Source of the DNA: a virus
Taxonomy: Duplodnaviria; Heunggongvirae; Uroviricota; Caudoviricetes
Virus record (IMG/VR): IMGVR_UViG_2675903413_000006
Coordinates: 1-19,819 of that record
Strand: one strand, 5' to 3'
Length of the DNA: 19,819 bases
Positions within the stretch are counted from its first letter, which is position 1. Every line of letters starts with the position of its first letter. Positions 1-19,657 of this stretch are shown piece after piece. The notes below the pieces were generated by a model. That model had not been told where the DNA came from. It saw nothing but the letters and a program-made list of their open reading frames with translations, and searched no databases. The translations under genes were made by a program, and so were the position numbers.

Positions 1-1872
1 ATGAGGTTTATTGCGAAGATAATAAACGGCAGGAGAAGTGGTCTAGAGATAGGGTTGACTCCCTTTGGTCTTCAGTCCTCTAATCAGATTTATTTTCTGG
101 AAGACGAAGCTCTAGAGTTTAGGCTGGAAGCATCTGTTCCGTTGGATGATGTTTTTTTATGTCTTCATGAAAATGAAATAGGAATAACTTCTAGCAAAGA
201 ATACGATGGCCTATGGATTTACGAATGGAAACCAAAATCTATATATCGATCAACATACGAATGCTTTTTTCATAACTATTATGGTATGGCAGAGCTATCG
301 ATAGTAACGAAAATCGATGGAGTTGGCGAAAGAGTTATTATTGAACAATATTCTCCGGTTGAAGTATTTGCCAAAAAATTGAATGCTGAACGGGCAGAAA
401 AAATGCTCGATTTCTTAGCGTGTCATGATAATGATGCTCTAGCAGCATTTTTTAGAGTAACTCGTATAAATGCAGGATTCAAAGAAGGAGAAAGATCGGT
501 TAGCTTTTTGATTGAACAACTCGAACGAAATGTTTTATTGTTAATGACCGAGATTCCAAATATCTATTCCAGGCCAATCGCAAAACTTACACCAGTGACT
601 AAAGTTGTCGTAGTATCCGAAAACTCTGTTATCGATGACACCACTTTAGCTTGGATTTCAGAAAACTCTGACAACCTTTATCCAGTTAATGATCAGACCC
701 GCGCAATATTGGAACTAGATGGCACATATTATTCATCGGAACGAATATTAGAAAATCATCTAAAAGAGGATTTGAATATTTATGAAAATCAAGTTGTCCA
801 TGGCTTTATAGTATCCCTAATGCGTGCTGCATCGGAGATCTTGAGTCGGCTTGAAGAGTATCCTTCTTCCAGAATTCGTGAACAGTCGAGCATATCCGGG
901 TATATTTCATTTTTTGCACAGCTAAGTAAGTTTGCAAAGGTTGTAAATAAAAATAAAGTTTCACGATGTAAAGAATTGATTATTAATCTACAGCGTTTGA
1001 AACGAACTTTTGATGAGCGGGTTCCTGTAACTAATATTATCATTGGCACTCCGCAATTCACAAGAAAAGCTAGATACAACCTTCATTATCAGAAGGTTTT
1101 TCATAAAATAATTGCTTGGCATAGATTCGGCGCACCTGATTGGAGCGTACAGGAAGAGCTATTTTCGATACAAAGTATCCCAAAACTTTTTGAATACTAC
1201 CTATTATTTTTAATTAAGTATCACTTTGACAACGTACGGTTATTGGGCATGAAGTTTGAGCTAGTGAATGGCCCTGTAATAGAACGGAATAATTTTGAGT
1301 ATGACTGGGGAGGTTTTACTGTACAGCTTATCTATGAGATGAAAATTTGGACTCATGATCATGCAAGCTCTTTTGGGGCTTCCCTAATTAACTCCGAAGG
1401 GTGGACTCTAGACACCGTGAAAGGTAAATTGAAGCCTAGAGGGCAGCAAGGTCCTAATGCTAATCGATCACCAGACATGATAGTTTGCATTTCAACGCCT
1501 ACGGGTGAACAAAGGCAATTAATCCTAGATGCAAAGTATACTACCAGTAAAAAAGCGTTTACACATTACCTCCCCGAACTCACTATGAAATACCTTCATG
1601 GTATACATGAAAAAAATACTGGAAAAAGTTTGTCTTCTGGGCTGATGATTGTAAATCCAAGTGAATCTTGCGAGACTCGTCATTTCCATCATGAGAAATA
1701 TAGTATTTACGGAACAAGACCTATCACACCTGCTTTATTAGTAAGTTCGTTAGCTCCAGGAATGGCGGAAGATAGTGGTTCTGATTTTAGAAATAATTTA
1801 TCCCAATTCCTGACCTTAATGAGAGCCTCTCTTGAAGGTGAGCAACCATGCCATTTAGGAATCGTGGTTTAA
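1..1872 (+). CDS. Hypothetical 623-aa protein with a C-terminal PD-(D/E)xK-like nuclease motif; possible McrC-like or standalone restriction/defence nuclease
   Basis: Long uninterrupted ORF starting at window position 1; visibly AT-rich compared with the adjacent phage genes; C-terminal segment SPDMIVCISTPTGEQRQLILDAKYT fits the PD-x(n)-(D/E)-x-K pattern. The N-terminal ~480 aa are not recognised. Confidence 0.55.
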   Translation: MRFIAKIINGRRSGLEIGLTPFGLQSSNQIYFLEDEALEFRLEASVPLDDVFLCLHENEIGITSSKEYDGLWIYEWKPKSIYRSTYECFFHNYYGMAELSIVTKIDGVGERVIIEQYSPVEVFAKKLNAERAEKMLDFLACHDNDALAAFFRVTRINAGFKEGERSVSFLIEQLERNVLLLMTEIPNIYSRPIAKLTPVTKVVVVSENSVIDDTTLAWISENSDNLYPVNDQTRAILELDGTYYSSERILENHLKEDLNIYENQVVHGFIVSLMRAASEILSRLEEYPSSRIREQSSISGYISFFAQLSKFAKVVNKNKVSRCKELIINLQRLKRTFDERVPVTNIIIGTPQFTRKARYNLHYQKVFHKIIAWHRFGAPDWSVQEELFSIQSIPKLFEYYLLFLIKYHFDNVRLLGMKFELVNGPVIERNNFEYDWGGFTVQLIYEMKIWTHDHASSFGASLINSEGWTLDTVKGKLKPRGQQGPNANRSPDMIVCISTPTGEQRQLILDAKYTTSKKAFTHYLPELTMKYLHGIHEKNTGKSLSSGLMIVNPSESCETRHFHHEKYSIYGTRPITPALLVSSLAPGMAEDSGSDFRNNLSQFLTLMRASLEGEQPCHLGIVV

Positions 1873-2022
1873 GGGCCGATTCACTTTTATTGAATTTTTG
1901 TTACCGATAAAAGCTTGACATTTTAGTATCGAATGACCACCGTTATCATATTTGATTTCGGTGGTTAGCTTTCGACGTTGAAGAACTACTAGAGACTTTT
2001 ATCTAATATTAATGTTAAATTT

Positions 2023-3153
2023 TCACAACGCTACTTTGCTCCATCCCTTGCCTCGATCGTCATGATAACGATCGGTTTGTTGTTGTGTTTTATGACCAAG
2101 TAATTTTTGTGTATTTAAACCCTGTTCTTTATACAAACGTTCTGATAAAGACCTTTGTTCATGAAATGTTGCGGGAGAACCTTCACCCCAGTCAATTCCT
2201 GCTAAATCTCTTGCTTTACTGAAATTCATAGTCAAGGTATTGGCTTTAACCTGTGCGCCGCGTTCAGCCTGTGAAGTAGTACGAAAAAAATGTACAAGGT
2301 ATTGGCTGACCGCATAGTCACGGCAACGGGCTACTACATTGCGCAAACTCCAGTTAATCGCATTGAGGCGCAGGGAAAGCGGGATGGCGATTTTGCTCCC
2401 GGTTTTTTCCTGAATGACATGCAGATGATCATCCCAAATATCGCTAAATTTCATACGTGAAATATCACCTAACCGCTGACCAGTAACCAAGGCTAGCAGC
2501 ATGGCATTTCCCATGTAACGATGGCTGGCATCTGCGATATCGAATATTTTTTTCCATTCTTCGAGGCTCAGCCTTTGTCGGGTAATTTTTCTTCTTGGCT
2601 GTTTAGTAGCTAATGCAGGGTTATAGCCAGGAGGTACTTCTCCGTAGTGCTGCGCCTCTTTGAAAACATCAATCAGGACGGAGCGAACTACTTGTGCCAT
2701 TCTCGGTTGCCCAGCGGCAATATACTCATCAAGTAATTGTGCAATATCCCGGACATCAACAGCTGAAATTAGCTTCAATCCTGCCCGTTCTCTAAGTAAG
2801 GAGACAGGTTTGGCTTTCTGCTTGTAGGTGTTGAGCTTTATATCACCACTTTTCAGCCTGTCATTCTGGATCGCTTGATAGCGATCTAACCAAGTTGACG
2901 TTGTGATTGCTTTCCCTTTGCTGGTTGCGATCCTGTCACTGATGGCCAGAATCTGCCGGGTTCTTTGTTCAGCCAGGCGCGTATTGGCTTCAGTGGCAAT
3001 AGCGATAGCTTCAGTTTCGTTTGTTCCCAAAGCATGGAATTTCCCTGTTATTGGATGCTTATACCGCCAATAGACTTTATTTACCTTTCGGCTATAAAGC
3101 GGATATAAGTTAGGGACTGAAACATTATTCTTACGCGGTCTGGCTGCCATCAC
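2023..3153 (-). CDS. int: Tyrosine recombinase, lambda Int family integrase
   Basis: 376-aa ORF. N-terminal PNLY...ITGK and C-terminal LVTGQR...FHEQRSLSERLY...LLGHK...DRYHDDRGKGWSKV match the lambda Int layout including the catalytic Tyr region. The true start may be the second Met. Confidence 0.9.
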   Translation of the reverse strand: MMAARPRKNNVSVPNLYPLYSRKVNKVYWRYKHPITGKFHALGTNETEAIAIATEANTRLAEQRTRQILAISDRIATSKGKAITTSTWLDRYQAIQNDRLKSGDIKLNTYKQKAKPVSLLRERAGLKLISAVDVRDIAQLLDEYIAAGQPRMAQVVRSVLIDVFKEAQHYGEVPPGYNPALATKQPRRKITRQRLSLEEWKKIFDIADASHRYMGNAMLLALVTGQRLGDISRMKFSDIWDDHLHVIQEKTGSKIAIPLSLRLNAINWSLRNVVARCRDYAVSQYLVHFFRTTSQAERGAQVKANTLTMNFSKARDLAGIDWGEGSPATFHEQRSLSERLYKEQGLNTQKLLGHKTQQQTDRYHDDRGKGWSKVAL

Positions 3154-3376
3154 TCAAAATCCGTTGCAAAAGTAATGAGTCATTTTTCTTAATTACTGGT
3201 GTTACCAGCTCTCCAACTAACTCGGCGTCCTCACGCACTCGCCATAACCGACCTTGTTTCATTGCCGGTGGACAAAACAAATTCTGCTTAGCATAACGAC
3301 GCAACGTGGAAACGCTTGGAGGATTACTTCTGTATTTTTCAGAAGCCCATTCTTCAAGAGTTAACATTTGAAGCAT
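3131..3376 (-). CDS. xis: Excisionase (Xis-like)
   Basis: 81-aa ORF just upstream of int, overlapping its start by 23 nt as lambda xis/int do; MLTLEEWA...RRYAKQNLFCPPAMKQGRLWRV resembles the lambda Xis winged-helix region. Confidence 0.8.
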   Translation of the reverse strand: MLQMLTLEEWASEKYRSNPPSVSTLRRYAKQNLFCPPAMKQGRLWRVREDAELVGELVTPVIKKNDSLLLQRILSDGSQTA

Positions 3377-3450
3377 ATGCGATCACCTTATTACTTCAAT
3401 AACTGTTCAGTCTCTGCATATCGACCCTGCAAGGTCGGTTAGTTTCTCCA

Positions 3451-3586
3451 CAAAACAGAGAAGAACACCTGCGATGACTGCCGCCCCGGATGGATTGGGT
3501 TATGAGCCCGTCGTCCGGTGATGCTCTTCTCTGTTTTGTAAAAAGGACGGTACCAGCCGGAAGCAAGGGTACAAACTGGTACCGTC
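3451..3586. promoter_or_regulatory. GC-rich structured non-coding segment with two long inverted repeats (14 bp arms at 3451-3464/3525-3538; 11 bp arms GACGGTACCAG at 3546-3556/3576-3586); candidate operator cluster or structured RNA
   Basis: Perfect inverted repeats read directly from the sequence. ORFs across this region overlap in several frames with no RBS, so it is treated as non-coding. The GGTACC/GGTACAA motifs resemble the immunity-region operator half-site. Confidence 0.4.
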
Positions 3587-3803
3587 AAGACTACACACAG
3601 CATAAAGTTGTGGTGCCGGGTGCCTCCCGGTGCCTGGCGAAGGTTGCACACCAGACGGGTGGGTATCCACAGAAGGTCGACTGTCAGCCTCAACCTTAAC
3701 CCGCGTGCGCTGAGCCGCATTCACCACAACGCTAAGGATTCTCTCTGGTTGAAAATACTTAGCAGTTATGTGCCTGCTTTTAGCCACATCAGGCGAGGTG
3801 GAC

Positions 3804-3856
3804 CTGGTTATTCCCCAACAACAAGGATTCGGTTAATCTGGTTATCCCCAACAACG
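3804..3856 (+). repeat. Imperfect direct repeat CTGGTTAT(T)CCCCAACAAC, two copies 34 bp apart, just upstream of the 3871 gene
   Basis: Copies at 3804-3823 and 3838-3856, ending 15 nt before the ATG at 3871. Confidence 0.6.
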
Positions 3857-3870
3857 CAAAAGGAAAAGAA

Positions 3871-4305
3871 ATGTCCGGTAATATCTATACGCTGTACAAA
3901 TCCCACTGTGAAAATGTTGGAAAGTATCGGGGCATTGAAATCAGTGGGGTAGTGTCATCAGTCGAAATAAGCAAAGTTGAATCAAGGGCAACATTACTTA
4001 CTCTTCTGGACCTTGTCTTACATGAGCACCGGAAGAAATTCGGCACTCCCTATAATCAGTTGAATGGGAAAAAAGCTCTGGTTCACCTTATTCTGATGAA
4101 GCATCACTGGATGCCAAAACAGATTAATGAGATGAAATTTGATGAACTTCTTCTTTCAATTCAGGATGAACTCACGCTTGATAAAATAAGCGTAACCGCC
4201 CAGAAATTTTTAGATTATCGAGACTGGAGATCACAAATTCATCACTTTGATGATTTTGACGAAAATGAATGGGATCCTAATTTGTCTGCACAATATCTAA
4301 AGTAA
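3871..4305 (+). CDS. Hypothetical phage early-region protein (144 aa)
   Basis: ORF with a purine-rich stretch (aaaaggaaaagaa) before the ATG; no recognisable motif. Confidence 0.5.
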   Translation: MSGNIYTLYKSHCENVGKYRGIEISGVVSSVEISKVESRATLLTLLDLVLHEHRKKFGTPYNQLNGKKALVHLILMKHHWMPKQINEMKFDELLLSIQDELTLDKISVTAQKFLDYRDWRSQIHHFDDFDENEWDPNLSAQYLK

Positions 4306-4483
4306 CATCCTGTGATAAAACCGTGATTTCCTGATCCAGTTTTTTTAAGGAGTCTATTGTTTCCTGTCGATAAGACAGCACTTCACGAAGCTGGTTTATA
4401 GCTGCCAGCTTCTTTGCCATCCACTCGTAAATTTCCTCATTTGTGTATCCGGGCGCGACGATTTTTGGTTCTGTTTTGTGCAT
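4277..4483 (-). CDS. Hypothetical small protein (68 aa), first gene of the leftward early transcript
   Basis: Strong RBS (GGAGG 7 nt upstream of the ATG on the minus strand); sits downstream of the putative OL-like GGTACAT sites. Its 3' end is convergent with the 3871 gene. Confidence 0.5.
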   Translation of the reverse strand: MHKTEPKIVAPGYTNEEIYEWMAKKLAAINQLREVLSYRQETIDSLKKLDQEITVLSQDVTLDIVQTN

Positions 4484-4542
4484 TTCACACCTCCTCAAGT
4501 TATCAGTTACTTGTTGATGGGGACCAGATTGTTAAAGAGCTA

Positions 4543-4566
4543 AGCGTCCTGTAGGGCGCTTTTTTG
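4543..4566 (+). terminator. Rho-independent terminator-like hairpin (7 bp stem with one G-U pair, 4-nt loop) followed by TTTTTG
   Basis: AGCGTCC-tgta-GGGCGCT then a T-run on the plus strand; there is no T-run on the minus-strand side. Confidence 0.5.
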
Positions 4567-4717
4567 TTGCTAACGAATCATCCTGGACTTCATATGCCCC
4601 AGGCGGCTACTTCGTGGGCGTCCTGTCTGTTTGTTGTTTCTCTTTGGTACATTATGTATCTCAAGGGTACATTGTCAAGTATAAAAAAACCTGCCGAAGC
4701 AGGTTCATAAACATTGA

Positions 4718-5392
4718 TTAGGCTTTGATTTTGTATCTTCTTGGTTTTCCTGAGAAAATCACAGTTCCAATTATAGAGCAATTACCGTTGATCTTAATGT
4801 AAGGCTCAGGCCAGTTTGGGTTTAACGCTTTGAGATAACGCTGTGTCCCATCTTCTATCAACCTTTTGAAGGTGGTTTCACCTGTATCGTGCATCAATGC
4901 AATAACGTCGTCACCGTGGCAGGCAGGTACTTCAGGATCGACAAAAATCATGTCTCCCGGGCGGTACTCATCAATCATTGAATCACCTATCACCCGCAAG
5001 ATATAAGTCATTTCCCCACAGGGTACAGGGCAGGGATACGTTTCTGCTGTGCTCAAATCAACCTCAGAATATCCAACTTCTTTCCATGCTCCGGCCTGTA
5101 CCCATGATATGACAGGGACTAATGTGATTTGTTTATTAGTGATTGAAACATCAGGTTTTTTTGTGATGTTCGTTGTCTGGTGTTCTTGATCGAGCCATCC
5201 GACAGGCAGGTCGAAACATTTTTCGATGTGTCGTGCCATGCTGTCACCGATATTTTTAGTAGCACCATCTCCCATAAACCTGCTGGTCTGGGTTGGCTCG
5301 CGATCAATCATAGTGGCAAAGGAAGAATTCCCGCCAACACCATCTCTCAGTTTTCTGGCGTTAGACCGCCGGATGTCATGGATTGTTTTCAT
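4718..5392 (-). CDS. cI: Phage repressor, CI-like, with a C-terminal S24 (LexA-like) autopeptidase domain
   Basis: C-terminal VIGDSM (Ser nucleophile) and TFKRL (Lys) are the S24 Ser/Lys dyad; divergent from a cro-like gene with an operator palindrome between them. Confidence 0.85.
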   Translation of the reverse strand: MKTIHDIRRSNARKLRDGVGGNSSFATMIDREPTQTSRFMGDGATKNIGDSMARHIEKCFDLPVGWLDQEHQTTNITKKPDVSITNKQITLVPVISWVQAGAWKEVGYSEVDLSTAETYPCPVPCGEMTYILRVIGDSMIDEYRPGDMIFVDPEVPACHGDDVIALMHDTGETTFKRLIEDGTQRYLKALNPNWPEPYIKINGNCSIIGTVIFSGKPRRYKIKA

Positions 5393-5407
5393 AACGAAAT
5401 TAAAACC

Positions 5408-5428
5408 CTTGTACCGTTAAGGTACAAG
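5408..5428. promoter_or_regulatory. Operator: perfect palindrome CTTGTACC-gttaa-GGTACAAG in the cI/cro divergent promoter region; a further GGTACA half-site lies at 5471-5476
   Basis: 21-bp perfect dyad 16 nt upstream of the cI start codon and about 55 nt upstream of cro. Confidence 0.7.
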
Positions 5429-5482
5429 TATCTTGAAGGTTCATTTCAATCATGTAATATGTATACCGGAGGTACATATTGT

Positions 5483-5683
5483 ATGAAAGCGTATTGGGAC
5501 TCTTTAACCAAAGAACAGCAGGGCGAGTTGGCCGGAAAAGTTGGCTCAACACCTGGCTACTTACGGCTGGTTTTCAATGGCTATAAAAAAGCCAGTTTTG
5601 TGCTGGCTAAAAAACTTGAGCAATGCACGTCAGGTGCAATTACGAAATCTGACTTAAGACCGGATATCTATCCGAAAGATTAG
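5483..5683 (+). CDS. cro: Cro-like HTH regulator
   Basis: 66-aa product; GGAGG RBS 11 nt upstream; divergent from cI. The 5' part of the longer 5180-5683 ORF overlaps cI antisense and is rejected. Confidence 0.7.
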   Translation: MKAYWDSLTKEQQGELAGKVGSTPGYLRLVFNGYKKASFVLAKKLEQCTSGAITKSDLRPDIYPKD

Positions 5684-5714
5684 CAGAACACTTTCAATTT
5701 TTAACCACAGAACG

Positions 5715-6284
5715 ATGAGGCTAATCGTGGGTAAGCATCACTGGAAAATAGAAAAACAGCCTGAGTGGTACGTGAAAGCTGTCAGAAAAACTATCGCGGC
5801 GTTGCCGGGTGGTTACGCTGAAGCGGCTGACTGGCTCGATGTAACAGAAAACGCTTTATTCAACCGCCTTCGTGCAGATGGCGATCAGATTTTCCCGCTG
5901 GGATGGGCAATGGTTTTACAGCGTGCTGGTGGCACTCACTTCATTGCTGATGCTGTGGCGCAGTCTGCAAATGGCGTCTTTGTGTCTCTTCCTGACGTCG
6001 AGGATGTGGACAACGCCGATATTAACCAGCGTCTGCTGGAAGTCATTGAACAGATCGGCAGTTATTCAAAACAGATTCGTTCAGCAATCGAAGACGGTGT
6101 AGTGGAACCGCATGAGAAGACAGCAATTAACGACGAGCTGTACCTATCAATTTCGAAGCTGCAGGAGCATGCAGCACTTGTCTACAAAATTTTTTGCATT
6201 TCAGAAAGTAATGACGCCCGCGAGTGTGCAGCTCCGGGCGTCGTGGCGTCGATTGCTTCTGGTTGTGGAGAAACTAACGCATGA
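5715..6284 (+). CDS. Phage regulatory protein CII-like (phage 186 CII / CP76 family-like)
   Basis: Sits in the cII position downstream of cro; residue pattern ([27 protein letters not shown]...HFIADAVAQ) parallels 186 CII as recalled from memory. The start may be the GTG at 5727. Confidence 0.5.
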
Positions 6285-6466
6285 ACAGTTTAACAACACA
6301 CTACCGTCGCTCGCAACTGATTGCGCTTCCTGTACCGGGTGGAAAAGCGAAGGTGGAGTATTGCTATGCAGTAAATGTACCAGGTGAACGGTGTTTACAG
6401 AAAAGCAGCAAGCGGGCTGCATCAGGTGAAGAGTGGTATCTGTCAGGGAATTACGTGGGGGCTTAA
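6281..6466 (+). CDS. Hypothetical small protein (61 aa), translationally coupled on both sides
   Basis: ATGA overlap with the upstream stop and TAATG overlap with the downstream start; no recognisable motif. Confidence 0.3.
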
Positions 6467-7119
6467 TGAGTAATAAATATTGCCAAGCGCTGGTGGAACT
6501 GCGGAACAAACCAGCCCATGAACTGAAGGAAGTGGGCGATCAGTGGCGCACGCCGGATAACATTTTCTGGGGAATTAACACCCTGTTTGGTCCGTTTGTT
6601 CTGGATCTGTTTACCGATGGTGATAACGCCAAATGTGCCGCGTATTACACGGCGGAAGACAACGCGCTGGCGCATGACTGGTCAGAACGTCTTGCGGAGC
6701 TTAAAGGTGCTGCCTTTGGTAATCCCCCATATAGCCGCGCCAGTCAGCATGAGGGGCAATACATCACCGGCATGCGTTACATCATGAAGCATGCCAGTGC
6801 CATGCGTGATAAAGGCGGGCGCTATGTTTTCCTGATCAAAGCTGCCACCAGCGAAGTGTGGTGGCCGGAAGATGCAGATCATATTGCTTTTATTCGCGGG
6901 CGTATTGGTTTTGAACTGCCTGCCTGGTTTATCCCGAAGGATGAGAAGCAGGTGCCGACAGACGCTTTCTTCGCTGGTGCTATTGCTGTTTTCGACAAGA
7001 CCTGGAAGGGACCGGCAATCAGCTACATCGGGCGCGATGAACTTGAGGCATGTGGTGAGGCCTTTCTGGCGCAGGTTCGCCAGCAGGCAGAAAAACTGGT
7101 CAGGGAGATGGCGGCATGA
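6466..7119 (+). CDS. Phage N6-adenine DNA methyltransferase (Dam-like)
   Basis: Catalytic NPPY motif (AFGNPPYSR) and typical phage Dam-family context in the nin-like region. Confidence 0.8.
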   Translation: MSNKYCQALVELRNKPAHELKEVGDQWRTPDNIFWGINTLFGPFVLDLFTDGDNAKCAAYYTAEDNALAHDWSERLAELKGAAFGNPPYSRASQHEGQYITGMRYIMKHASAMRDKGGRYVFLIKAATSEVWWPEDADHIAFIRGRIGFELPAWFIPKDEKQVPTDAFFAGAIAVFDKTWKGPAISYIGRDELEACGEAFLAQVRQQAEKLVREMAA

Positions 7120-7442
7120 CGACGTTAACTCAATGCCAGCAGCAGGTGCTGGATATGCTGATTTCTTATCAGAAAGAACGTGGCTTCCCGCCAACCAATC
7201 AGGAGGTGGCAACCATGCTGGGATACCGTTCAGTGAATGCAGCGGTGGAGCATCTTCGCGCACTGGAGAAAAAAGGCGTCATCACGATAAAGCGTGGCGT
7301 GGCCCGGGGCATCACGCTTCATACCGCGGTGAAGGACGACGACAGCGAGGCGGTCGGGATTATCCGCTCACTGCTTGCCGGTGAGGAAAACGCAAGGCTG
7401 CGTGCAACCCACTGGTTACATGAGAGGGGCCTGAAAGTATGA
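7116..7442 (+). CDS. LexA N-terminal DNA-binding-domain protein lacking the S24 peptidase domain
   Basis: 108 aa; MTTLTQCQQQVLDMLISYQKERGFPPTNQEVATMLGYRSVNAAVEHLRALEKKGVITIKRGVARGITL aligns by eye with the E. coli LexA N-terminal domain. No Ser/Lys peptidase region follows. Confidence 0.75.
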   Translation: MTTLTQCQQQVLDMLISYQKERGFPPTNQEVATMLGYRSVNAAVEHLRALEKKGVITIKRGVARGITLHTAVKDDDSEAVGIIRSLLAGEENARLRATHWLHERGLKV

Positions 7443-7834
7443 AGCTGATCCTGCCTTTTCCGCCCAGCGTGAACACGTACTGGCGACACCCCAACAAAGG
7501 GGCGTTTGCTGGTAAGAGCCTGATAAGCGCGGCGGGGCGAAAATTCCAGAGCGCGGCGTGCGCAGCAATAGTTGAGCAGTTACGTCGTCTGCCGAAACCA
7601 ACGTCGGCACCTGCTTCAGTGGAGATCGTGTTGTTTCCTCCGGATAACAGGATCCGCGATCTGGACAACTATAACAAGGCGCTGTTTGACGCCCTGACCC
7701 ACGCGGGGGTGTGGGAAGACGACAGTCAGGTGAAAAGAATGCTGGTGGAGTGGGGACCGGTTATCCCGGAGGGGAAGGTCGAGATCACTATCAGTAAGTA
7801 CGAAAAAGCGAGTTGCAAATTAGCAACTCGGTAA
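7439..7834 (+). CDS. rusA: Holliday junction resolvase RusA
   Basis: 131 aa; LPFPPSVNTYWRH...RDLDNYNKALFDALTHAGVWEDDSQV...VEITI matches the RusA signature. Confidence 0.85.
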   Translation: MKLILPFPPSVNTYWRHPNKGAFAGKSLISAAGRKFQSAACAAIVEQLRRLPKPTSAPASVEIVLFPPDNRIRDLDNYNKALFDALTHAGVWEDDSQVKRMLVEWGPVIPEGKVEITISKYEKASCKLATR

Positions 7835-7879
7835 CGGAATTGAGCAACACCCTAAATTTGGGTATTACCTCGTTAAAGA

Positions 7880-7899
7880 TACTGTATTTATGAACAGTG
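7880..7899. promoter_or_regulatory. LexA (SOS) box TACTGTATTTATGAACAGTG upstream of the KilA-N gene
   Basis: CTGT-N8-ACAG with an AT-rich spacer, matching the enterobacterial LexA consensus; about 100 bp upstream of the ATG at 7997. Confidence 0.7.
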
Positions 7900-7996
7900 T
7901 ATCCTTGATAACTATTAAAAATCGCAGTAAGTTCATCCTGCATCAACGAAAAGGGAGTGCAGTCCCGCTCGTGGATAAAAATTTGTGGAGAAACCA

Positions 7997-8812
7997 ATGA
8001 ATCAGTTGCTTGTAATTGATGGCGTTTCTGTGCGCCAGTACTTCGAATCTAACTACTGTCTTAACGACCTTCAGAAAGCAGCTCTTCTTGCCGCTGGTGA
8101 GAATCGCTCCTCCCGTTCGCTGGAAGTTCACGAGTTTATGCGTCGTCCTGAAACGAAGGCTCTTGTGGAATTATTGGAAGAAGAAACTACGGGAGATTCC
8201 CGTAGTATTCCTGTCATCACCATTCAGGGGCGCAATGGTGGGACGTATGTCTGTAAAGAGCTGGTCTATGCATATGCAATGTGGATCAGCCCGGCATTCA
8301 GCTTAAAAGTGATACGTACTTTTGATGCGCTTCATAATTCATCACCAGAAGAAACCACATCCGACAAAATTAAATCCGGGGTCATTCTGCTTGAATCAGC
8401 AGCAAAGACTCTAAATCTGTCAAACTCCTCGAAACTTGGTGCATACCAGAAATTATCAAAGGTAGCTGGTCTTCCTGAACTTATGCCGATCTATGCCATT
8501 GATGCACCTGCTGATGCGCCAGATGGTTCAAGCCGCCCTACGCTGTCGCTGAGTGCACTGCTGAAACAGTATGGTATCCGCCTTACGGCTAATCAGGCAT
8601 ATCACCAGATGGTGAAGCTGGGGATCGTCGAGCAGCGCGAACGATACAGCCGTACCTCGATTAACAACATCAAAAAATTCTGGTCGCTGACAGCGAAAGG
8701 CTGCATGTTCGGCAAGAACATCACCAGTCCTGCAAATCCGCGCGAGACGCAGCCGCACTTCTTCGAATCCCGATTCCCTGAGCTGTTAAAGCTGCTCAAT
8801 ACCGTTCATTGA
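7997..8812 (+). CDS. KilA-N domain protein, putative SOS-controlled antirepressor
   Basis: N-terminal KilA-N-like segment (GTYVCKELVYAYAMWISPAFSLKVIR); GGAG RBS; LexA box in its promoter region. Confidence 0.7.
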   Translation: MNQLLVIDGVSVRQYFESNYCLNDLQKAALLAAGENRSSRSLEVHEFMRRPETKALVELLEEETTGDSRSIPVITIQGRNGGTYVCKELVYAYAMWISPAFSLKVIRTFDALHNSSPEETTSDKIKSGVILLESAAKTLNLSNSSKLGAYQKLSKVAGLPELMPIYAIDAPADAPDGSSRPTLSLSALLKQYGIRLTANQAYHQMVKLGIVEQRERYSRTSINNIKKFWSLTAKGCMFGKNITSPANPRETQPHFFESRFPELLKLLNTVH

Positions 8813-8813
8813 G

Positions 8814-9809
8814 GTGACCGTGAGAGCACTACTGACCCCTGAAATTGCCCCGCGTATGGGGATCGTATTGTTCAGACCAGGTTCAGAGCTGATGCCCCTG
8901 TTTATGCAGGGGCGTGTCCTGCTGGAGCCTGAGCCGGAACGTTATTCATCTTTCGCCAGTGGTGCCGTTCCGGCGGCATCACAACCGCTGGCGGATGATC
9001 CTGCCGTTCGGGCCGTGTTCCGCAATGAGGCAGTAATCCGTCGTGCTGGTGGAGTGGAATGTCTTGAAAGCTGGTTACTTCGTGAAAAAGGCTGCCAGTG
9101 GCCCCATTCTGACTGGCACAGCGAGAACATGACCACAATGCGACACGCGCCGGGCGCAATCCGTCTGTGCTGGCACTGCGATAACCAGCTGCGCGATCAG
9201 TTCACGGAACGGCTGGAATCAATGGCAACGGATAACTGTGCCCGCTGGGTGTTATCTGTTGTGCGCCGTGATCTCGGTTTTGATGATAGTCACGTTGTAA
9301 CAATGCCGGAACTGTGCTGGTGGCTGGTTCGTAATGACCTGGCTGATGCCTTACCGGAAAGTGCAGCCCGTAAGGCACTGAGATTACCTAAGCCTGTTGT
9401 GCCGTCTGTCACCCGGGAGAGTGACCTTGTTCCTTCGGTTCCTGCCACCAGCATTATCCAGGATAAAGCGAAAAAGGTGCTGGCGCTGAAAGTGGATCCA
9501 GAGTCGCCGGAGTCTTTTATGTTACGCCCAAAACGTCGCCGCTGGGTTAATGAAAAGTACACGCGCTGGGTTAAGACGCAGCCGTGTGCATGTTGTGGAA
9601 AGCCTGCTGATGATCCCCACCACCTGATAGGCCACGGTCAGGGTGGAATGGGTACAAAAGCGCATGATCTCTTTGTGTTGCCTTTGTGCAGAAAGCATCA
9701 CGACGAGCTGCATGCGGATACCGTGGCATTTGAAGAGAAGTATGGCTCCCAGCTGGAGCTGATATTTCGTTTTATCGATCGTGCGCTGGCAATTGGCGTG
9801 CTGGCCTGA
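8814..9809 (+). CDS. DUF968-family phage protein (YdfU-like) with a Cys/His-rich C-terminus
   Basis: GTG start; C-terminal CACCGKPADDPHHL...CRKHHDELH; position immediately upstream of Q as in Qin-type prophages. Confidence 0.65.
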   Translation: MTVRALLTPEIAPRMGIVLFRPGSELMPLFMQGRVLLEPEPERYSSFASGAVPAASQPLADDPAVRAVFRNEAVIRRAGGVECLESWLLREKGCQWPHSDWHSENMTTMRHAPGAIRLCWHCDNQLRDQFTERLESMATDNCARWVLSVVRRDLGFDDSHVVTMPELCWWLVRNDLADALPESAARKALRLPKPVVPSVTRESDLVPSVPATSIIQDKAKKVLALKVDPESPESFMLRPKRRRWVNEKYTRWVKTQPCACCGKPADDPHHLIGHGQGGMGTKAHDLFVLPLCRKHHDELHADTVAFEEKYGSQLELIFRFIDRALAIGVLA

Positions 9810-9826
9810 TTTTGTGGAGAAGGTTG

Positions 9827-10177
9827 ATGCGTGATATGTATGAAGTATTGGACCGCTGGGGAGCATGGGCTGCAGCAGATAACAGTGGTGTGGACTGGCA
9901 GCCTGTTGCTGCAGGGTTTAAAGGTTTACTACCTCATGGAAAGAAAACACGCCAACAATGCGATGATGATGAAGGAATCATGATTGACAGCTGTGTTGCG
10001 CGATTGCGGAAATATAAGCCAGAAGAATATGAACTGATCATTGCTCACTTTGTTATCGGTATTTCACTCCGTTCAATAGCAAAGAAACGGAAATGCTCTG
10101 ACGGGTCAATCAGAAAACAACTTCAAGCAGCAATAGGAGTGATTGAAGGTATTTTGTTGATTATTAAGCCCCTGTAG
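9827..10177 (+). CDS. Late-gene antitermination protein Q (QuuD-like small Q family)
   Basis: MRDMYEVLDRWGAWAA...AAGFKGL...CDDD...CSDGSIRKQLQAAIGVIEGIL matches the QuuD/YbcQ-like pattern; RBS GGAGAAGG. Confidence 0.8.
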   Translation: MRDMYEVLDRWGAWAAADNSGVDWQPVAAGFKGLLPHGKKTRQQCDDDEGIMIDSCVARLRKYKPEEYELIIAHFVIGISLRSIAKKRKCSDGSIRKQLQAAIGVIEGILLIIKPL

Positions 10178-10180
10178 GGC

Positions 10181-10765
10181 TTAATAATTCATATGAATTC
10201 TGTTTCCGAGATAATATAATCCAAAGAAAGTTGATACTAAGAGTTGCCAAACGAGGAAAGTAAATACAACAGTATAAACCATTAAAACAATACTGTTTTG
10301 ATAGACATTGATTAATGGTGAAAATATAGCATTAAGTATTATTATAACAATGCTTAATGCTGTTAAAAAAGAGAATAGCATGCAAAGAAATAATCGTCTG
10401 GTCAGAACCTCCTCTGAATTTACTACTTTTCCATTTTCTTTTGTTACTTTTATTTCAATAGAGGCATTTCTTTCATTGCTAATCAATGGTAAATCAATCT
10501 CAGCTCTATTGAAAGTTGCTATGGCGGCCAGAGCGGCAATATAAAACCCTGGTAGGTTAGAGATAAATGAAACGATTGATTTAATGAAACCATTGTCATC
10601 AAATAAATCTTTGACAGGGATTTTTAATAGAGTGAAAAGTACTGCTGTGATAGAAGTAAGTAGAATTGGTGCTACCCAATCATATGCAGCTTTGCCGCTA
10701 ATACCTTTAATAAAAAGATATCCAAACGGCTTGCCTAGATGAGAGAAAACTGAAAGTATTGGCAT
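10181..10765 (-). CDS. Hypothetical integral membrane protein (194 aa, about four predicted TM helices); second gene of the AT-rich cargo operon
   Basis: Four hydrophobic segments with a ~40-aa hydrophilic loop between the second and third; GAGG RBS 6 nt upstream of the ATG; 7-nt intergenic gap to the upstream gene; AT-rich. Confidence 0.6.
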   Translation of the reverse strand: MPILSVFSHLGKPFGYLFIKGISGKAAYDWVAPILLTSITAVLFTLLKIPVKDLFDDNGFIKSIVSFISNLPGFYIAALAAIATFNRAEIDLPLISNERNASIEIKVTKENGKVVNSEEVLTRRLFLCMLFSFLTALSIVIIILNAIFSPLINVYQNSIVLMVYTVVFTFLVWQLLVSTFFGLYYLGNRIHMNY

Positions 10766-10772
10766 AATAACC

Positions 10773-11795
10773 TCACATCAAATCTATCATTTTCACAACA
10801 AACTCTAGTTCAATTTTAACATATGAATCCTTCAGGCGCGAATTAAAGTTATCGATAATGCTTTTCTTAATAAATGTTTTTTCTAAATTATTAAGATTGA
10901 TGTTTGAGGTTTTGAAATCAACCTGCCTTGGTTTATTTGTTTCAGGATCTTGGAATTTAACCTTTAATTTATCATAACCACCATTCATTTTTTTATTGAA
11001 ATGAGATGCTACATTTTTAATCCATCCAATAACATTGTCACCATGATTTGGAAGTAATTTTAATGTACTTTCAGTCGGAATGTAAGGTGAATTAACATCA
11101 GGAGCATTAATTGTTCCGAATTGATCCTTGACTAATATGACATCTGATAATCCTTTTTGGCTTATTTTATTAAAAAGCTCCTTGTCTAACATTCCTGTAA
11201 ATTCAAATATTGGTTTGTATCGTATTTTTACTTCTTTTTTTGATGTTGCAGAAATAACGTTAGTTGGATGTTTTGCGGTAAATAAGTCTTCATTGTCTTT
11301 CGCCACTTCAAAGAGAATTTTGTCTAAAAAACTATTTAACCGGGCCGTAGATACACCTGGGGTAGATGTACAAATCATATCATAGGTTCTTTTATTTCCA
11401 TTTAATGATATGACAACATAGGTAGAAACTTCATAGCCTTCACCTTGTTCATATTTTGGTTGGATTTCAACGCGTTCATTAGTATTTATATTTTTTACAA
11501 CGGTAGTACTTCCATTTTTATCAACACTATTAATAAGAAGGACAATATGCGTGGGTGAGTTATCTGGAAGTAAAGGATAAAGTTGTACATCTTGGAGAGT
11601 AACTACAATATTCCCAGAATCATATGAATGAACGAGTCCCTTTTGTTTAACAATCAATGGGGCAAGCATGTACATTTCCGGAACAGGACATATACACTGG
11701 GCTTTTACCTCTTGTGTTGCCTTGGTTCTAAACTTTGTGTCAATGGTCAGACTATGATGAGTAACGAGTCTTTCGCTAGCATTTAATTTTGCCAT
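10773..11795 (-). CDS. Hypothetical soluble protein (340 aa); first gene of the AT-rich cargo operon
   Basis: Long AT-rich ORF antisense to the phage late genes; no catalytic motif recognised (no CD-NTase GS...DxD, no YADD, no Walker A, no TIR/SIR2 signature seen). Confidence 0.6.
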   Translation of the reverse strand: MAKLNASERLVTHHSLTIDTKFRTKATQEVKAQCICPVPEMYMLAPLIVKQKGLVHSYDSGNIVVTLQDVQLYPLLPDNSPTHIVLLINSVDKNGSTTVVKNINTNERVEIQPKYEQGEGYEVSTYVVISLNGNKRTYDMICTSTPGVSTARLNSFLDKILFEVAKDNEDLFTAKHPTNVISATSKKEVKIRYKPIFEFTGMLDKELFNKISQKGLSDVILVKDQFGTINAPDVNSPYIPTESTLKLLPNHGDNVIGWIKNVASHFNKKMNGGYDKLKVKFQDPETNKPRQVDFKTSNINLNNLEKTFIKKSIIDNFNSRLKDSYVKIELEFVVKMIDLM

Positions 11796-11906
11796 GAAAT
11801 CATCCGATTATGATTTTTCGATTTATTTGTTAATCTTACAAAAACGCTAACGCGTACGCAAAAATTATTGTATCGTGTTAAGAGTGGTTACTTCGCCACA
11901 CAGCTT

Positions 11907-11935
11907 AAACCCGCCGTCGAGCGGGTTTTGTCGTT
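11907..11935 (+). terminator. tR'-like intrinsic terminator (hairpin AAACCCGC...GCGGGTTT then a T-rich tract) upstream of the lysis cassette
   Basis: GC-rich stem followed by TTTTGTCGTTT, about 150 bp upstream of the holin gene; fits the lambdoid pR'-tR' arrangement. Confidence 0.6.
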
Positions 11936-12080
11936 TCTGGGGCTGGGGATTCGTTGGTCCTGGTCTATTCCGCAGTTATCCATTGGTTCGGCTTCTTTGA
12001 CGTTTCCGCTTCTAATTTGCTGTACATGATGTTCCCTCAATTTGCACCTGCTGTATCAGCGAGGTGAGAGATAACTACAA

Positions 12081-12407
12081 ATGCCTCATAACCCAAATAC
12101 CTGGCTGGAGTTGGTCCAGAGCTGGTGGCGTGGAGACACACCGCTGGGCGCAGTGATTATGTCGATTGTTATGGCTGGTTTACGTATTGCCTATTTTGGC
12201 GGTGGTGGCGGCTGGAAGCGAAAAACACTCGAAATTCTACTCTGTGGCGCTCTGACGCTGACTTTTGCATCCGCTCTTGAGTATGTCGGATGGCCTAAAT
12301 CGCTTTCTGTTGCCATTGGTGGTGGGGTGGGGCTGATCGGTGTCGATGCTATTCGTGGGGCTGCAATGAGAGTAATCGGTAATAAGTTTGGTGGCTCTAA
12401 GGAGTAA
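12081..12407 (+). CDS. Holin (lambda S-like)
   Basis: 108 aa with hydrophobic helices and a charged C-terminus, immediately upstream of the endolysin. Confidence 0.8.
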   Translation: MPHNPNTWLELVQSWWRGDTPLGAVIMSIVMAGLRIAYFGGGGGWKRKTLEILLCGALTLTFASALEYVGWPKSLSVAIGGGVGLIGVDAIRGAAMRVIGNKFGGSKE

Positions 12408-12410
12408 TTT

Positions 12411-12887
12411 ATGCAGGTACTAAATTCCCAGCGTAAAGCTTTCCTCGATATGGTGGCATGGTCAGAAGGAACGGATAACGGGCGACAACCGACACGTAAC
12501 CACGGTTATGATATTATTGTTGGTGGTGAACTATTCACTGATTACTCCGATCACCCTCGCAAACTTGTCACGCTAAACCCCAAACTCAAATCAACAGCTG
12601 CAGGCCGTTATCAACTTCTTTCACGCTGGTGGGATGCTTACCGCAAGCAGCTTGGGCTGAAAGACTTCTCTCCAAAAAGCCAGGATGCTGTGGCATTGCA
12701 GCAGATTAAAGAGCGTGGCGCTTTACCGATGATTGATCGCGGCGATATTCGTCAGGCTATCGATCGTTGCAGCAATATCTGGGCTTCACTGCCGGGCGCT
12801 GGTTACGGTCAATATGAACATAAAATCGGTGACCTGATTGCCCGATTCAAAGAGGCTGGCGGGGTGGTAAATGAAGTTGAGCTATAA
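12411..12887 (+). CDS. Endolysin, lambda R-type lytic transglycosylase
   Basis: Near-identical by recall to lambda R across the protein (QRKAFLDMVAWSEGTDNGRQPTRNHGYDIIVGGELFTDYSDHPRKLVTLNPKLKST...). Confidence 0.9.
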   Translation: MQVLNSQRKAFLDMVAWSEGTDNGRQPTRNHGYDIIVGGELFTDYSDHPRKLVTLNPKLKSTAAGRYQLLSRWWDAYRKQLGLKDFSPKSQDAVALQQIKERGALPMIDRGDIRQAIDRCSNIWASLPGAGYGQYEHKIGDLIARFKEAGGVVNEVEL

Positions 12888-13305
12888 GCTGGTTATCGCA
12901 GCATTCTTCTCTACTGTCATCGGTTCTTTCATCTGGTCTGCTAACCACTACTACAGCAAATATCAGCACGAAAAGAAACGTGCTGATGAGGCTGTACAAA
13001 ATGCTGAATCCGCAACCGCTATTACCAATAATGTCCTGCAATCACTGCAAATCGTCAATACAGTTCTGGAGGCTAACCAGCATGCAAAACAGCAGATCGC
13101 ACTGGAGTCACAGAGAACCCAGGCTGATATCAAAGTGGCTGTTGCGGATGATGATTGTGCTTTACGCCTTGTGCCTGCTGCCGCTGCTGACCGGTTGCGG
13201 AAATACGCGGACAGTTTACGTAACAGTACCTCCAATTCCGCTTCCAGCTACTCTGACTTTGGAAACGCCAGTACCGCACATACCCGATACTCTGACCTAT
13301 GGTGA
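12871..13305 (+). CDS. Rz-like i-spanin
   Basis: N-terminal TM segment followed by a coiled, charged region; start overlaps the R stop. Confidence 0.7.
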   Translation: MKLSYKLVIAAFFSTVIGSFIWSANHYYSKYQHEKKRADEAVQNAESATAITNNVLQSLQIVNTVLEANQHAKQQIALESQRTQADIKVAVADDDCALRLVPAAAADRLRKYADSLRNSTSNSASSYSDFGNASTAHTRYSDLW

Positions 13306-13396
13306 CAGTCTGGAGTTGAATGTGAGTCTGTTGTCAGCGTTGGAACAGTGTAATCTTGATAAAGCGACAATAAAAAATATCGACGCTAACAAATAA
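13148..13396 (+). CDS. Rz1-like o-spanin lipoprotein, embedded in the +1 frame of Rz
   Basis: MMIVLYALCLLPLLTGC signal with lipobox LTGC, then a Pro-rich segment; lies within and extends beyond Rz. Confidence 0.65.
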   Translation: MMIVLYALCLLPLLTGCGNTRTVYVTVPPIPLPATLTLETPVPHIPDTLTYGDSLELNVSLLSALEQCNLDKATIKNIDANK

Positions 13397-13461
13397 AAGG
13401 ACCTGTAATTTCATAGAGATGATTCCATGTTAATATTGCTTCTTTAACTGGAGGCATATTG

Positions 13462-13947
13462 ATGGATTGGAATATGTGGTCTGCTATTGGGGCTTGTGGT
13501 TCGGCTATCGCGTCTTTATGGGCGTTGTGTTATGCACGCAAGGCGTTAAACACATGGAATAGACAAGAGCAATTTAAAGTAAAGTTAGAGTTTAAACGAG
13601 CTTTACTTGAGCTGGAGGATGCCTTTGAGGCAATGCCCGATAATTGGAATTCCACACAATACAGAATAGCTAGAACAAGAGTTGAACAGCAGTATAATGC
13701 TGTTGTTCACCGAGTTGATGATGCAGCACAGCTATATTTTAAGAAAGAAAACCTTAAATCAGCATACCAGAATGCAGTGAGAGCATGGGTTTTATGTGAA
13801 GGGGGGATTAAAGATAAAAGTATACATGCTGAATGGAAACAACTCAGGACTGAATATAGTCAATATATTATGACTGGTGGAAATAAAAAGTGCTACTTAT
13901 CAAAAATAGAAAAAATATATTCTAGAATTGTCGTGTTCATAGATTGA
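13462..13947 (+). CDS. Hypothetical AT-rich moron protein (161 aa) with an N-terminal hydrophobic helix
   Basis: GGAGG RBS 7 nt upstream; AT-rich; followed by a perfect palindrome ATGAGAGAG-acaagta-CTCTCTCAT (13955-13979). Confidence 0.5.
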   Translation: MDWNMWSAIGACGSAIASLWALCYARKALNTWNRQEQFKVKLEFKRALLELEDAFEAMPDNWNSTQYRIARTRVEQQYNAVVHRVDDAAQLYFKKENLKSAYQNAVRAWVLCEGGIKDKSIHAEWKQLRTEYSQYIMTGGNKKCYLSKIEKIYSRIVVFID

Positions 13948-13993
13948 TTTTTATATGAGAGAGACAAGTACTCTCTCATTATGGATATTTTAC

Positions 13994-14344
13994 ATGCCAC
14001 CACGAACCCCAAAAGCCTGCCGCGTTCGCGGCTGCCGCAATACCACTACTGATCCGTCAGGCTATTGCGAAAACCACAAAAGCGAGGGCTGGAAGCAATA
14101 CAAGCCAGGACAATCCCGTCATCAGCGCGGTTATGGTTCGAAATGGGATGCTATCCGTGAACGTGTGCTGAAGCGTGACAAAGGCCTGTGTCAGTTATGT
14201 CTGCGTGCTGGTGTGGTGCGTGAGGCGAAAACCGTTGACCACATCATCCCTAAAGCGCATGGCGGCACAGATGCCGACAGTAATCTGCAGAGCCTGTGCT
14301 GGCCGTGTCATAAGGCGAAGACGGCCCGTGAACGGCTGAAGTGA
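13994..14344 (+). CDS. HNH endonuclease (terminase-associated)
   Basis: CxxC...HK...CxxCH arrangement with DHIIPKAHGG...NLQSLCWPCHKAKT; located immediately upstream of terS. Confidence 0.8.
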   Translation: MPPRTPKACRVRGCRNTTTDPSGYCENHKSEGWKQYKPGQSRHQRGYGSKWDAIRERVLKRDKGLCQLCLRAGVVREAKTVDHIIPKAHGGTDADSNLQSLCWPCHKAKTARERLK

Positions 14345-14469
14345 GAACCAGTTCCCACTGCCAGAGGGGAGGGGCGGGTCAAATCCCTGTGACCTGACGT
14401 CTTCCGGACTGCCCGCCCCATCGTTTTTTTATACCCGCGAAAAATGAAATTTAACCAGGAGTGCCGCAT

Positions 14470-14964
14470 ATGGCTGGAACGGCGGGGCGTTCCGGGCGTC
14501 GCCCCAAGCCAACGGCGCGCAAGGCGCTGGCCGGAAACCCCGGCAAGCGAGCCCTGAATAAAGATGAACCTGTTTTTACGCCCATCAAAGGTGTTGAGCC
14601 ACCGGAGTGGTTCGCAGAAGAAAATCTCCCTCTCGCCACGATCATGTGGCAACTGACAACCAAAGAACTCTGCGGTCAGGGCCTGTTGTGCGTGACTGAC
14701 CTCGCGGTGCTTGAGCGGTGGTGCGTGGCCTATGAGTTCTGGCGACGTGCCGTGAAAAATATTGCCATACAGGGCAACACCATCACCGGTGCAATGGGCG
14801 GCAGGGTCAAAAATCCGGAGCTGACCGCCAAAAAAGAACAGGAGTCCGAGATGAGCAGCACGGGGGCAATGCTCGGACTCGACCCCAGCAGCCGCCAGCG
14901 TCTGATTGGCCTGGCGGGGAAGAAGAAAGCCACTAACCCGTTTCTGAAAATCATCGAATCATGA
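14470..14964 (+). CDS. Terminase small subunit, P27 family
   Basis: [14 protein letters not shown]... N-terminus and size typical of P27-family TerS; AGGAG RBS; ATGA coupling to terL. Confidence 0.75.
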
Positions 14965-15767: not shown

Positions 15768-15768
15768 T

Positions 15769-18606: not shown

Positions 18607-18811
18607 ATTTCAGCGCCCGACGCTGGCAGAAAATATCAGTATGCTCCGTAACGATTTATTCGCCAGGCTGGACGTCAGCGACACGCTCCGGCGCATGGAT
18701 GAAGACGTGCGGGCAAAGGTGTATGCGGCGGCGCTGCATACGGTTTACGGTTACATCGATTACGTCAAATTGGCGGGCATAATGCCTGGCGTGACAGCAA
18801 CGGACAGTTGA
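18593..18811 (+). pseudogene. Baseplate J-like protein (Mu gp47 family), N-terminal ~70-aa fragment truncated at a deletion junction
   Basis: ...VYAAALHTVYGYIDYVKLAGIMPGVTAT matches the N-terminal region of baseplate J proteins; the ORF ends after 72 codons and the downstream DNA encodes an autotransporter beta-domain. Confidence 0.7.
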
Positions 18812-19601: not shown

Positions 19602-19613
19602 TCCCGCCGTTAG

Positions 19614-19645: not shown

Positions 19646-19657
19646 ACATATGAAATA

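Follow-up and report, generated by a model that had tools for sequence, protein, structure and literature searches.

A probable early-left leader with an intrinsic terminator and a three-way-junction RNA ahead of xis and int in an e14/SfV-like lambdoid prophage

The DNA studied here is a stretch of 19,819 nucleotides (nt) from a Caudoviricetes virus (IMG/VR record IMGVR_UViG_2675903413_000006, positions 1 to 19,819; hereafter the window), and it is an e14/SfV-like lambdoid prophage. An identical stretch is found in Escherichia coli 82.0311, whose RefSeq/PGAP annotation lists intE, xisE and a 'frameshifted hypothetical protein' and, further on, an ECs1072-family gene, the CI-like repressor ymfK, the cro-like ymfT and other early genes. 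On the minus strand of the window xis (3131-3376), an xisE-like excisionase gene recognized by Pfam Exc, PHROG 629 and RefSeq, is the first gene after a leader, and int (2023-3153), an intE-like integrase gene by the RefSeq annotation of the identical genome, is the second gene of the same transcription unit. The segment at 3451-3586, upstream of xis and under the frameshifted annotation, contains two inverted repeats, IR1 and IR2. We consider it probable that this segment is part of a minus-strand early-left leader, in which IR2 is an attenuator and IR1 belongs to a junction RNA ahead of xis-int, and that it is not a DNA-binding site.

Both repeats lie where the initial annotation had placed them. 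The arms of IR1 are 3451-3464 (CAAAACAGAGAAGA) and 3525-3538 (TCTTCTCTGTTTTG), with a spacer of 60 nt, and those of IR2 are 3546-3556 (GACGGTACCAG) and 3576-3586 (CTGGTACCGTC), perfect over 11 nt with a spacer of 19 nt. The perfect part of IR1 grows to 15 nt when 3450/3539 is added and to 18 nt when one mismatch is allowed, and as minus-strand RNA the repeat forms 20 base pairs (bp), G.U counted. When the intergenic region 3377-3870 was shuffled 500 times with its dinucleotides preserved, and spacers of up to 80 nt were allowed, the longest perfect inverted repeat was 7.4 nt on average and in no case longer than 12 nt; a repeat of at least 11 nt appeared in 0.8% of the shuffles, one of at least 14 nt in 0/500, and two of at least 11 nt together likewise in 0/500. 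IR1 and IR2 are thus confirmed as real and far above chance expectation. The folding energy of a 371-nt region, compared with shuffles, gives z = -4.9 for the minus and -3.7 for the plus strand. The segment had also been described as GC-rich, which holds only mildly (53.7% GC versus 47.6% for the window), and as possibly a structured RNA, a suggestion now supported by covariation, by an Rfam match close to threshold and by a 3' end published for the K-12 homologue. These data support the conclusion that IR1 and IR2 are parts of two separate RNA elements, both on the minus strand.

IR2 (3546-3586) is the stem-loop of a Rho-independent terminator, with 11 perfect base pairs (13 in the minimum-energy fold), and is followed on the minus strand by a C and a UUUUU tract (3540-3545), of which 3540 is the expected RNA 3' end. 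A U-tract lies 3' of IR2 on the minus strand only, the plus strand having none, and IR2 with its U-run is an intrinsic terminator of minus-strand transcription. A GC-rich hairpin followed by T5-7 recurs in 70 of 73 distinct upstream contexts of relatives, in 52 distinct hairpin sequences, with stems as different as GTCGGCGTC/GACGCCGAC in ST64B, GGCGGTTATCC/GGATAACCGCC in a Klebsiella phage, GCGGCATC/GATGCCGC and TGCCCATC/GGTGGGCA. When these were aligned by sequence only (MAFFT), 90.4% of cells were paired and 6 of 9 pairs were changed on both sides, a level reached by 0/500 shuffles, with slid controls at 18-53%. In E. coli K-12 Term-seq has mapped a 3' end at 1201195(-), which is listed as 'internal to ymfH' and lies 163 nt ahead of xisE (PMC7815308, supplementary files 1 and 3). 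By its flanking sequence this position falls on the final U of the homologous CCCUUUUU, one base ahead of the IR1 homologue, and it is equivalent to 3540 of the window. Two further minus-strand Term-seq 3' ends in K-12 e14 lie at 1201257 and 1201423.

The RNA that would end at this terminator resembles a known family. Its body (3587-3760, minus strand) contains a conserved CACCGGGAGGCACCCGGCACCACAAC and, just before the terminator, a conserved single-stranded stretch, UGCUGUGUGUAGUCUUG, which is retained across genera. In a permissive scan the Rfam model RF02076 (STnc100; gathering score 47 bits) aligned to the minus strand from 3760 to 3537 over its full length (1-206 of 206) with 44.7 bits and E = 2e-8, IR2 falling on the terminator hairpin of the model and a conserved CACCGGGAGGCACCCGGCACCA being included in the alignment. 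The only other match in the window on that scan was a weak DicF-like terminator; at gathering thresholds Rfam gave no match in the window, and in 14 related loci it covered neither IR1 nor IR2. Hfq studies have made STnc100 and its relative PasD known as prophage small RNAs (sRNAs), and the RNA in the window shares with them its prophage location and its termination at a Rho-independent terminator like those of Hfq-binding sRNAs, but differs in the larger loop of its terminator and in its place in the early-left leader upstream of xis-int. From the sequence, IR2 and the RNA upstream of it appear to be an ordinary, near-threshold relative of a known sRNA family in an unusual position. The string CACCACAAC is also conserved upstream of the terminator (3607-3615 in the window).

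IR1, beginning directly 3' of the U-tract, is the closing helix of a conserved three-way-junction RNA. The helix, P1, pairs its 5' strand at 3520-3539 (the right arm of IR1) with its 3' strand at 3450-3469 (the left arm), and is supported by the alignment of relatives, its covariation, a covariance model and folding; it encloses the arm P2 (3485-3518), with a 7-bp stem, an internal loop and an apical hairpin GGG-CUCAUAA-CCC at 3497-3509, and the arm P3 (3471-3484), a short variable hairpin GCGG...UCGC that ranges from 14 to about 40 nt in relatives. In an alignment of 69 distinct sequences of this stretch (A4) the 34 pairs are standard in 93.5% of cells, and 11 pairs, in 118 cells, are changed on both sides; 0/500 shuffles match this and slid controls give 40-53%. 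The 20 pairs of P1 are 95.7% paired, with 6 changed on both sides, and include a U.G pair conserved in 64 of the 69 sequences and replaced by U-A in the other 5; P2 covaries at the A4 pairs 32-60 and 34-58, and 3 of the 4 pairs of P3 are changed on both sides. The single window sequence, folded by minimum energy, gives the same three helices (-42.7 kcal/mol, z = -7.0), and with a covariance model built from A4 the minus strand scores 113.9 bits and the plus strand 34.4, a single copy being found in the window. The orientation of the element rests on the U-tract, the Term-seq end and the association with transfer RNA (tRNA) arrays described below. Immediately 3' of P1 on the minus strand is GGAGAAAC (3442-3449), almost invariant in A4, which can pair with the terminator U-tract and so lengthen P1 to about 25 bp, and stems of 25 bp are seen in relatives. 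Neither the pre-terminator stretch nor the CUCAUAA loop has a complement within the window. Many P1 5' arms outside E. coli (for example in loci L009, L021 and L031; A4 columns 9-20) begin with ACACAACAG or ACGCAACAC, within which CACAACA is quoted as the GcvB-seed target consensus in a paper on prophage anti-sRNAs. The junction RNA is absent from Rfam 15 and no description of it was found in the literature searched; it is a well-supported structured RNA, akin to phage leader structures and to tRNA-like RNAs, and it involves no new principle.

One more hairpin separates the junction from the coding sequence. Hairpin 3 (3421-3438, minus strand; CGACC-UUGCAG-GGUCG) has a covarying stem and a conserved (U/G)GCAG loop and is the last element before xis, the ribosome-binding site of the first gene coming after it. 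Among 55 distinct downstream contexts its stem takes forms such as CGACC/GGTCG, GGCGG/CCGCC, GCCCC/GGGGC and GCGCC/GGCGC.

The distribution of this module is broad and its position is fixed. The 494-nt intergenic region is present in 2,781 of 5,426 complete E. coli genomes, about half, as well as in SfV, SfIV, SfII, mEp460, cdtI and many Stx2 phages, and at about 77% identity in Salmonella ST64B; the IR1 element itself occurs in Escherichia, Shigella, Salmonella, Klebsiella, Citrobacter, Enterobacter, Kosakonia, Leclercia, Mixta, Erwinia, Pantoea and other genera. In all phages inspected the module lies between the repressor gene and the first leftward early gene (yfdP-like ... xis, int), in the orientation of the early-left operon and with no N-like gene in between, and in SfV, SfIV, mEp460, ST64B and Stx2 phages it is directly upstream of the first early-left gene. 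Among 80 loci collected through the yfdP-like protein, independently of the RNA, 79 have the IR1 element on the sense strand, some 40 nt ahead of the gene, the sole exception being a truncated copy. K-12 CPS-53 (L320, yfdP at 7605-7967) keeps yfdP-yfdT and torI, and the covariance model finds no match upstream of yfdP there; CPS-53 has lost the leader module at this place. In the early-right region of SfV, an Stx2k phage, mEp460 and ST64B, isrK stands beside a C4 antisense RNA, both as Rfam gathering-score matches (L003 6972-7160, L007 6148-6336, L008 6160-6348 and L009 6232-6420), a pair that resembles the P1-type immI antirepressor control module and of which the window has neither member.

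Upstream of the module, the window has the layout of a repressor-controlled leftward transcription unit. A promoter scan predicts a strong sigma-70-like promoter, of the early-left (PL-like) kind, on the minus strand at 4651-4678 (TTGACA-16-CATAAT, 11 of 12 matches), flanked by the GTAC operator-like half-sites TGTACC/GGTACA and situated just downstream of the cI/ymfK terminator; ymfK itself, the CI-like repressor gene by the annotation of the identical genome, occupies 4718-5392 on the minus strand. Judged from its sequence, this is probably the early-left promoter and the source of the minus-strand transcript. About 110 nt downstream of it in the leader, at 4529-4540 on the same strand, lies an exact GCTCTTTAACAA, which we take to be a boxA from the rrn and lambda nut consensus. 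A hairpin at 4542-4561 precedes it, and the two together are reminiscent of an antitermination site of the rrn or nut type. Also downstream of the promoter is an open reading frame (ORF) of 68 amino acids (4277-4483), in which we found no arginine-rich motif and no known family (Pfam, PHROG). The corresponding K-12 genes, intE-xisE-ymfH, have been treated as one operon and placed in the SOS/e14 YmfT iModulon (PMC12133099).

Putting these elements together, we propose the following course of events. Inactivation of the YmfK-like repressor would allow transcription to start at the 4651-4678 promoter, and the transcript would cross the boxA and the 68-amino-acid ORF, run antisense through the ECs1072-family gene and then enter the STnc100-like RNA. 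The majority of polymerases would halt at 3540 and leave an sRNA-like product, IR2 serving as an attenuator before xis-int, and the conserved single-stranded stretch before the terminator could be an sRNA seed. The junction RNA would be present only on read-through transcripts and, with hairpin 3, would make up the 5' untranslated region of xis-int. P1, at 20-25 bp with the extension between the U-tract and GGAGA, might then be a processing or stability element that sets xis/int expression, for example a site for RNase III, for which it is long enough and which in lambda cleaves the long duplex of the N leader. We infer that a cis-acting attenuator and a processing or stability leader of this kind limits xis/int in the lysogen and shapes their expression after induction. 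The proposal draws its strength from the helices and their covariation, the orientation, the terminator activity of the K-12 homologue and the fixed position before the first early-left gene.

Several points weigh against it. The promoter, the antitermination step and the processing step are predictions, and the function of the junction RNA is an inference. The in vivo 3' end on the U-tract belongs to the K-12 e14 homologue and not to transcripts of this strain. The STnc100 match falls below its gathering score, and the late region, close to Q, an esterase gene and the lysis genes, is where canonical STnc100/PasD loci are found. The strand preference that comes from pairing is weak (93.5% versus 91.4% paired), minimum free energy does not favour the sense strand, and G.U counts are weakly informative. 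Most relatives were gathered with a 20-base pattern that fixes the apical sequence of P2, so the conservation of that apex is partly built into the sample; in the set gathered through the protein, GGGCTCAT(A/T)ACCC is found in at least 65 of the 80 loci. Finally, the tRNA-like interior is replaced in some relatives, which means that the tRNA-like arm is not essential to the leader.

The tRNA likeness is the basis of the first alternative, that the IR1 element works mainly in trans, as a tRNA-like small RNA cut from the leader here or from tRNA arrays in other phages rather than as a cis leader, mimicking the anticodon arm of the initiator tRNA and serving as a decoy or ligand for an anticodon nuclease, for MetRS, or for the 30S P site and IF3. 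We regard this as a possibility, though an unlikely one. The P2 arm ends in CGGGCUCAUAACCC, and over 14 nt the tip of P2, CGGGCTCATAACCC (3497-3510), matches without a difference the anticodon stem-loop encoded by the E. coli initiator tRNA gene metZ; the 7-nt apical loop CUCAUAA (3509-3497) has the equivalents of U33 and of A37, a purine at 37, on a G-C-rich stem. The core TGATGACGGGCTCATAATCCAATCCATC occurs moreover in at least 68 distinct phage sequences 5 nt 3' of the last tRNA of an array, in sense orientation, and in the only annotated locus of this kind, that of Klebsiella phage GZ7, the array lies between Q and the lysis genes. In these copies the basal helix is 6 bp (GGCCUG/CAGGCC), a G or an A and then CCA come after it, a covarying hairpin of 6-7 bp forms the third arm, and the total is about 72 nt. 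They are comparable with tRNAs and tRNA-like RNAs, with the stable RNAs of phage tRNA clusters and with 3' external transcribed spacers, being tRNA-sized with a discriminator-like base and CCA. A trans role would also agree with a report that an over-expressed 'ymfH' clone triggers the retron-Sen2 toxin, an effect for which the RNA might be responsible.

The copy in the window, however, fits such a role poorly. Its P1 is 20 bp (up to 25 with the extension) and runs into GGAGAAAC, with no 7-bp acceptor stem, no CCA and no promoter of its own, and the junction fold has neither a D arm nor a T-loop. ARAGORN (standard, relaxed and mitochondrial) and the Rfam model RF00005 call no tRNA in the window element or in the tRNA-array relatives. 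The tRNA-like interior is wholly exchanged in some relatives, the loop is mutated in K-12 e14 (GGGUUAAUAACCC), and a discrete RNA is so far undetected. Under the leader proposal the initiator-tRNA-like arm might bind some partner, and the form found in tRNA arrays, which looks like an RNase P substrate, could be processed as such. A bolder version of the trans role, which we find doubtful, is that the IR1 element stands for an undescribed class of tRNA-like RNAs of temperate enterobacterial phages that lack a D arm, carry a copy of the initiator anticodon stem-loop and act in trans from two deployments, one in the read-through early-left leader and one as the last unit of tRNA arrays, ending in CCA. 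If this were true, the processed RNA would be a mimic or decoy of the initiator tRNA, with anticodon nucleases directed at tRNA-fMet or 30S initiation as possible targets, and prophage induction would be tied to host tRNA-targeting defence or to translation.

Less probable again is a role of the junction RNA, together with hairpin 3, in processive antitermination, as a site of the nut (boxA and boxB) or the HK022 put type that would let RNA polymerase resist terminators farther along the early-left operon. The position is that of a PL leader in phages that lack an N gene in the interval from cI to the first early-left gene; most relatives have UGCUCUU, like the start of boxA, in the 3' strand of P1, and the loop of hairpin 3 is conserved. 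The boxA-like string is nevertheless buried in a 20-bp helix and reads UGUUCUU in the window, while the canonical boxA is elsewhere, at 4529-4540; the same core is found at the ends of tRNA arrays; and since the junction element is downstream of IR2, it could not help polymerase to pass the IR2 terminator. Like the junction RNA, HK022 put is structured and lies in the early leader of a lambdoid phage that has no N, and the GTAC operators of HK022 resemble those of the window prophage, but put consists of two stem-loops that no closing helix joins, and the terminators that it suppresses come after it. Neither BLAST nor the covariance model detects any similarity to HK022 putL, and a direct reading of the HK022 PL leader showed none either.

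The layout of the leader invites comparison with the PL leader of lambda, which has nutL, an RNase III site in the N leader and the terminator tL1. Shared features are a repressor-controlled leftward promoter, a boxA, long double-stranded RNA before the first gene and terminators that gate xis/int. The window differs from lambda in having no N-like protein (the 68-amino-acid ORF at 4277-4483 lacks an arginine-rich motif) and no sequence similarity, and its structure is a three-way junction with a tRNA-like arm in place of a simple RNase III hairpin.

A role of IR1 as DNA, its arms being recombination sites of an invertible segment or else a cruciform or protein-recognition site, is very unlikely, although part of the evidence is suggestive. 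The inverted repeat is perfect over 15-20 bp, e14-type phages encode an invertase, and in a few phages the terminator, the 20-bp arms and hairpin 3 are retained with a different interior of about 73 nt, still able to form a junction, that is found both ways round (L300, L301, L303 and L316 versus L304 and L305, at about 1339-1451 of each locus). As these interiors are exact reverse complements across contigs, inversion between the arms has happened in nature. The tRNA-like interior behaves differently: an artificially inverted query reached at most 86% full-length identity among 2,777 element-carrying E. coli genomes, and with no inverted copy among them this interior is fixed in one orientation; all 25 of 25 perfect-armed copies with the tRNA-like core are likewise forward. 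The covariation of P2 and P3 is not required of a recombination site, and the conserved U.G pair is exchanged for U-A.

The proposal of the initial annotation that the segment is a third operator cluster of the CI-like repressor, controlling int/xis or the neighbouring gene, is not sustained, the full palindrome being absent and relatives altering the sequence, and we give it almost no credence. Its appeal lay in GGGTACAAA (3567-3575, within the IR2 spacer) and two GGTACC strings, which resemble the half-site GGTACAAG. Even with up to 3 mismatches allowed, the window has a single copy of the palindrome CTTGTACC-N5-GGTACAAG, at 5408-5428, which with a site near 4640-4680 makes up the resident operators; half-site matches with one mismatch are not enriched (19 found versus 11.9 +/- 3.5 expected), and IR2 has just one isolated half-site-like string, in its loop. 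Phage mEp460 and Stx2k phages have the same IR2 with an unrelated repressor DNA-binding domain and other operators, the mEp460 repressor aligning in the peptidase domain only and its operators being of the TTGCGC...GCAA type, and Salmonella and Klebsiella relatives have an entirely different IR2 sequence in which the hairpin and the U-run are kept. What the segment has in common with the OL/OR operators of CI-like repressors is thus short GTAC strings only; it has no operator palindrome, its sequence is independent of immunity type, and it is the hairpin, not the sequence, that is conserved.

Equally implausible is a decayed protein gene, the reading implied by ymfH in K-12 and by the frameshifted gene that PGAP places over both repeats in the identical genome. 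RefSeq annotations, a match of K-12 YmfH to PHROG 33599 and long open stretches, one frame per strand, in many copies speak for it, but the open-frame statistic is uninformative in a palindromic GC-rich region, which is open on both strands. The overlapping mechanical ORFs of the window (56-95 amino acids) have no Pfam or PHROG match, in agreement with the original remark that no coherent ORF covers the region; indels of 1 nt separate the window, K-12 and SfV; the length of the element varies between 87 and 114 nt, and not in steps of three; substitutions compensate one another within helices and lack codon periodicity; and a terminator with a mapped 3' end lies mid-gene. YmfH of K-12 e14 (L004 5070-5381; NC_000913.3 1201069-1201380) overlies this same terminator and the junction RNA, and is therefore probably not a protein gene. 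A candidate pairing of the CUCAUAA loop with AUGAG at the start codon was dropped, the match following the yfdP N-terminus and not the element.

Around the leader, the ECs1072-family gene (3871-4305, plus strand, by the annotation of the identical genome) has the look of a moron that was inserted into the early-left leader in antisense orientation. Just upstream of it are two direct repeats, CTGGTTAT(T)CCCCAACAAC, at 3804-3822 and 3838-3855 on the plus strand, which could be a binding site for a regulator of this gene. At the other side of int, the plus strand of the window at 1-1872 and the sequence upstream of it (L001) encode a DUF2357-domain protein and a large hypothetical protein, and K-12 e14 has lit and ymfD/ymfE on that same side of int; this end of the prophage resembles a variable slot for cargo, perhaps defence genes.

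A module found in about half of the complete E. coli genomes is at present annotated as a hypothetical protein, as a pseudogene or not at all. Reading it as a terminator and structured leader corrects the ymfH annotation and explains the mapped 3' end in K-12, and it defines a control region that would gate xis/int in this prophage and, in other phages, the whole early-left operon. The group concerned includes Shigella, Salmonella, Klebsiella and Stx-converting phages without an N gene, in which the junction RNA is a concrete candidate for studies of RNA processing, antitermination or the interplay of phage and host tRNAs.

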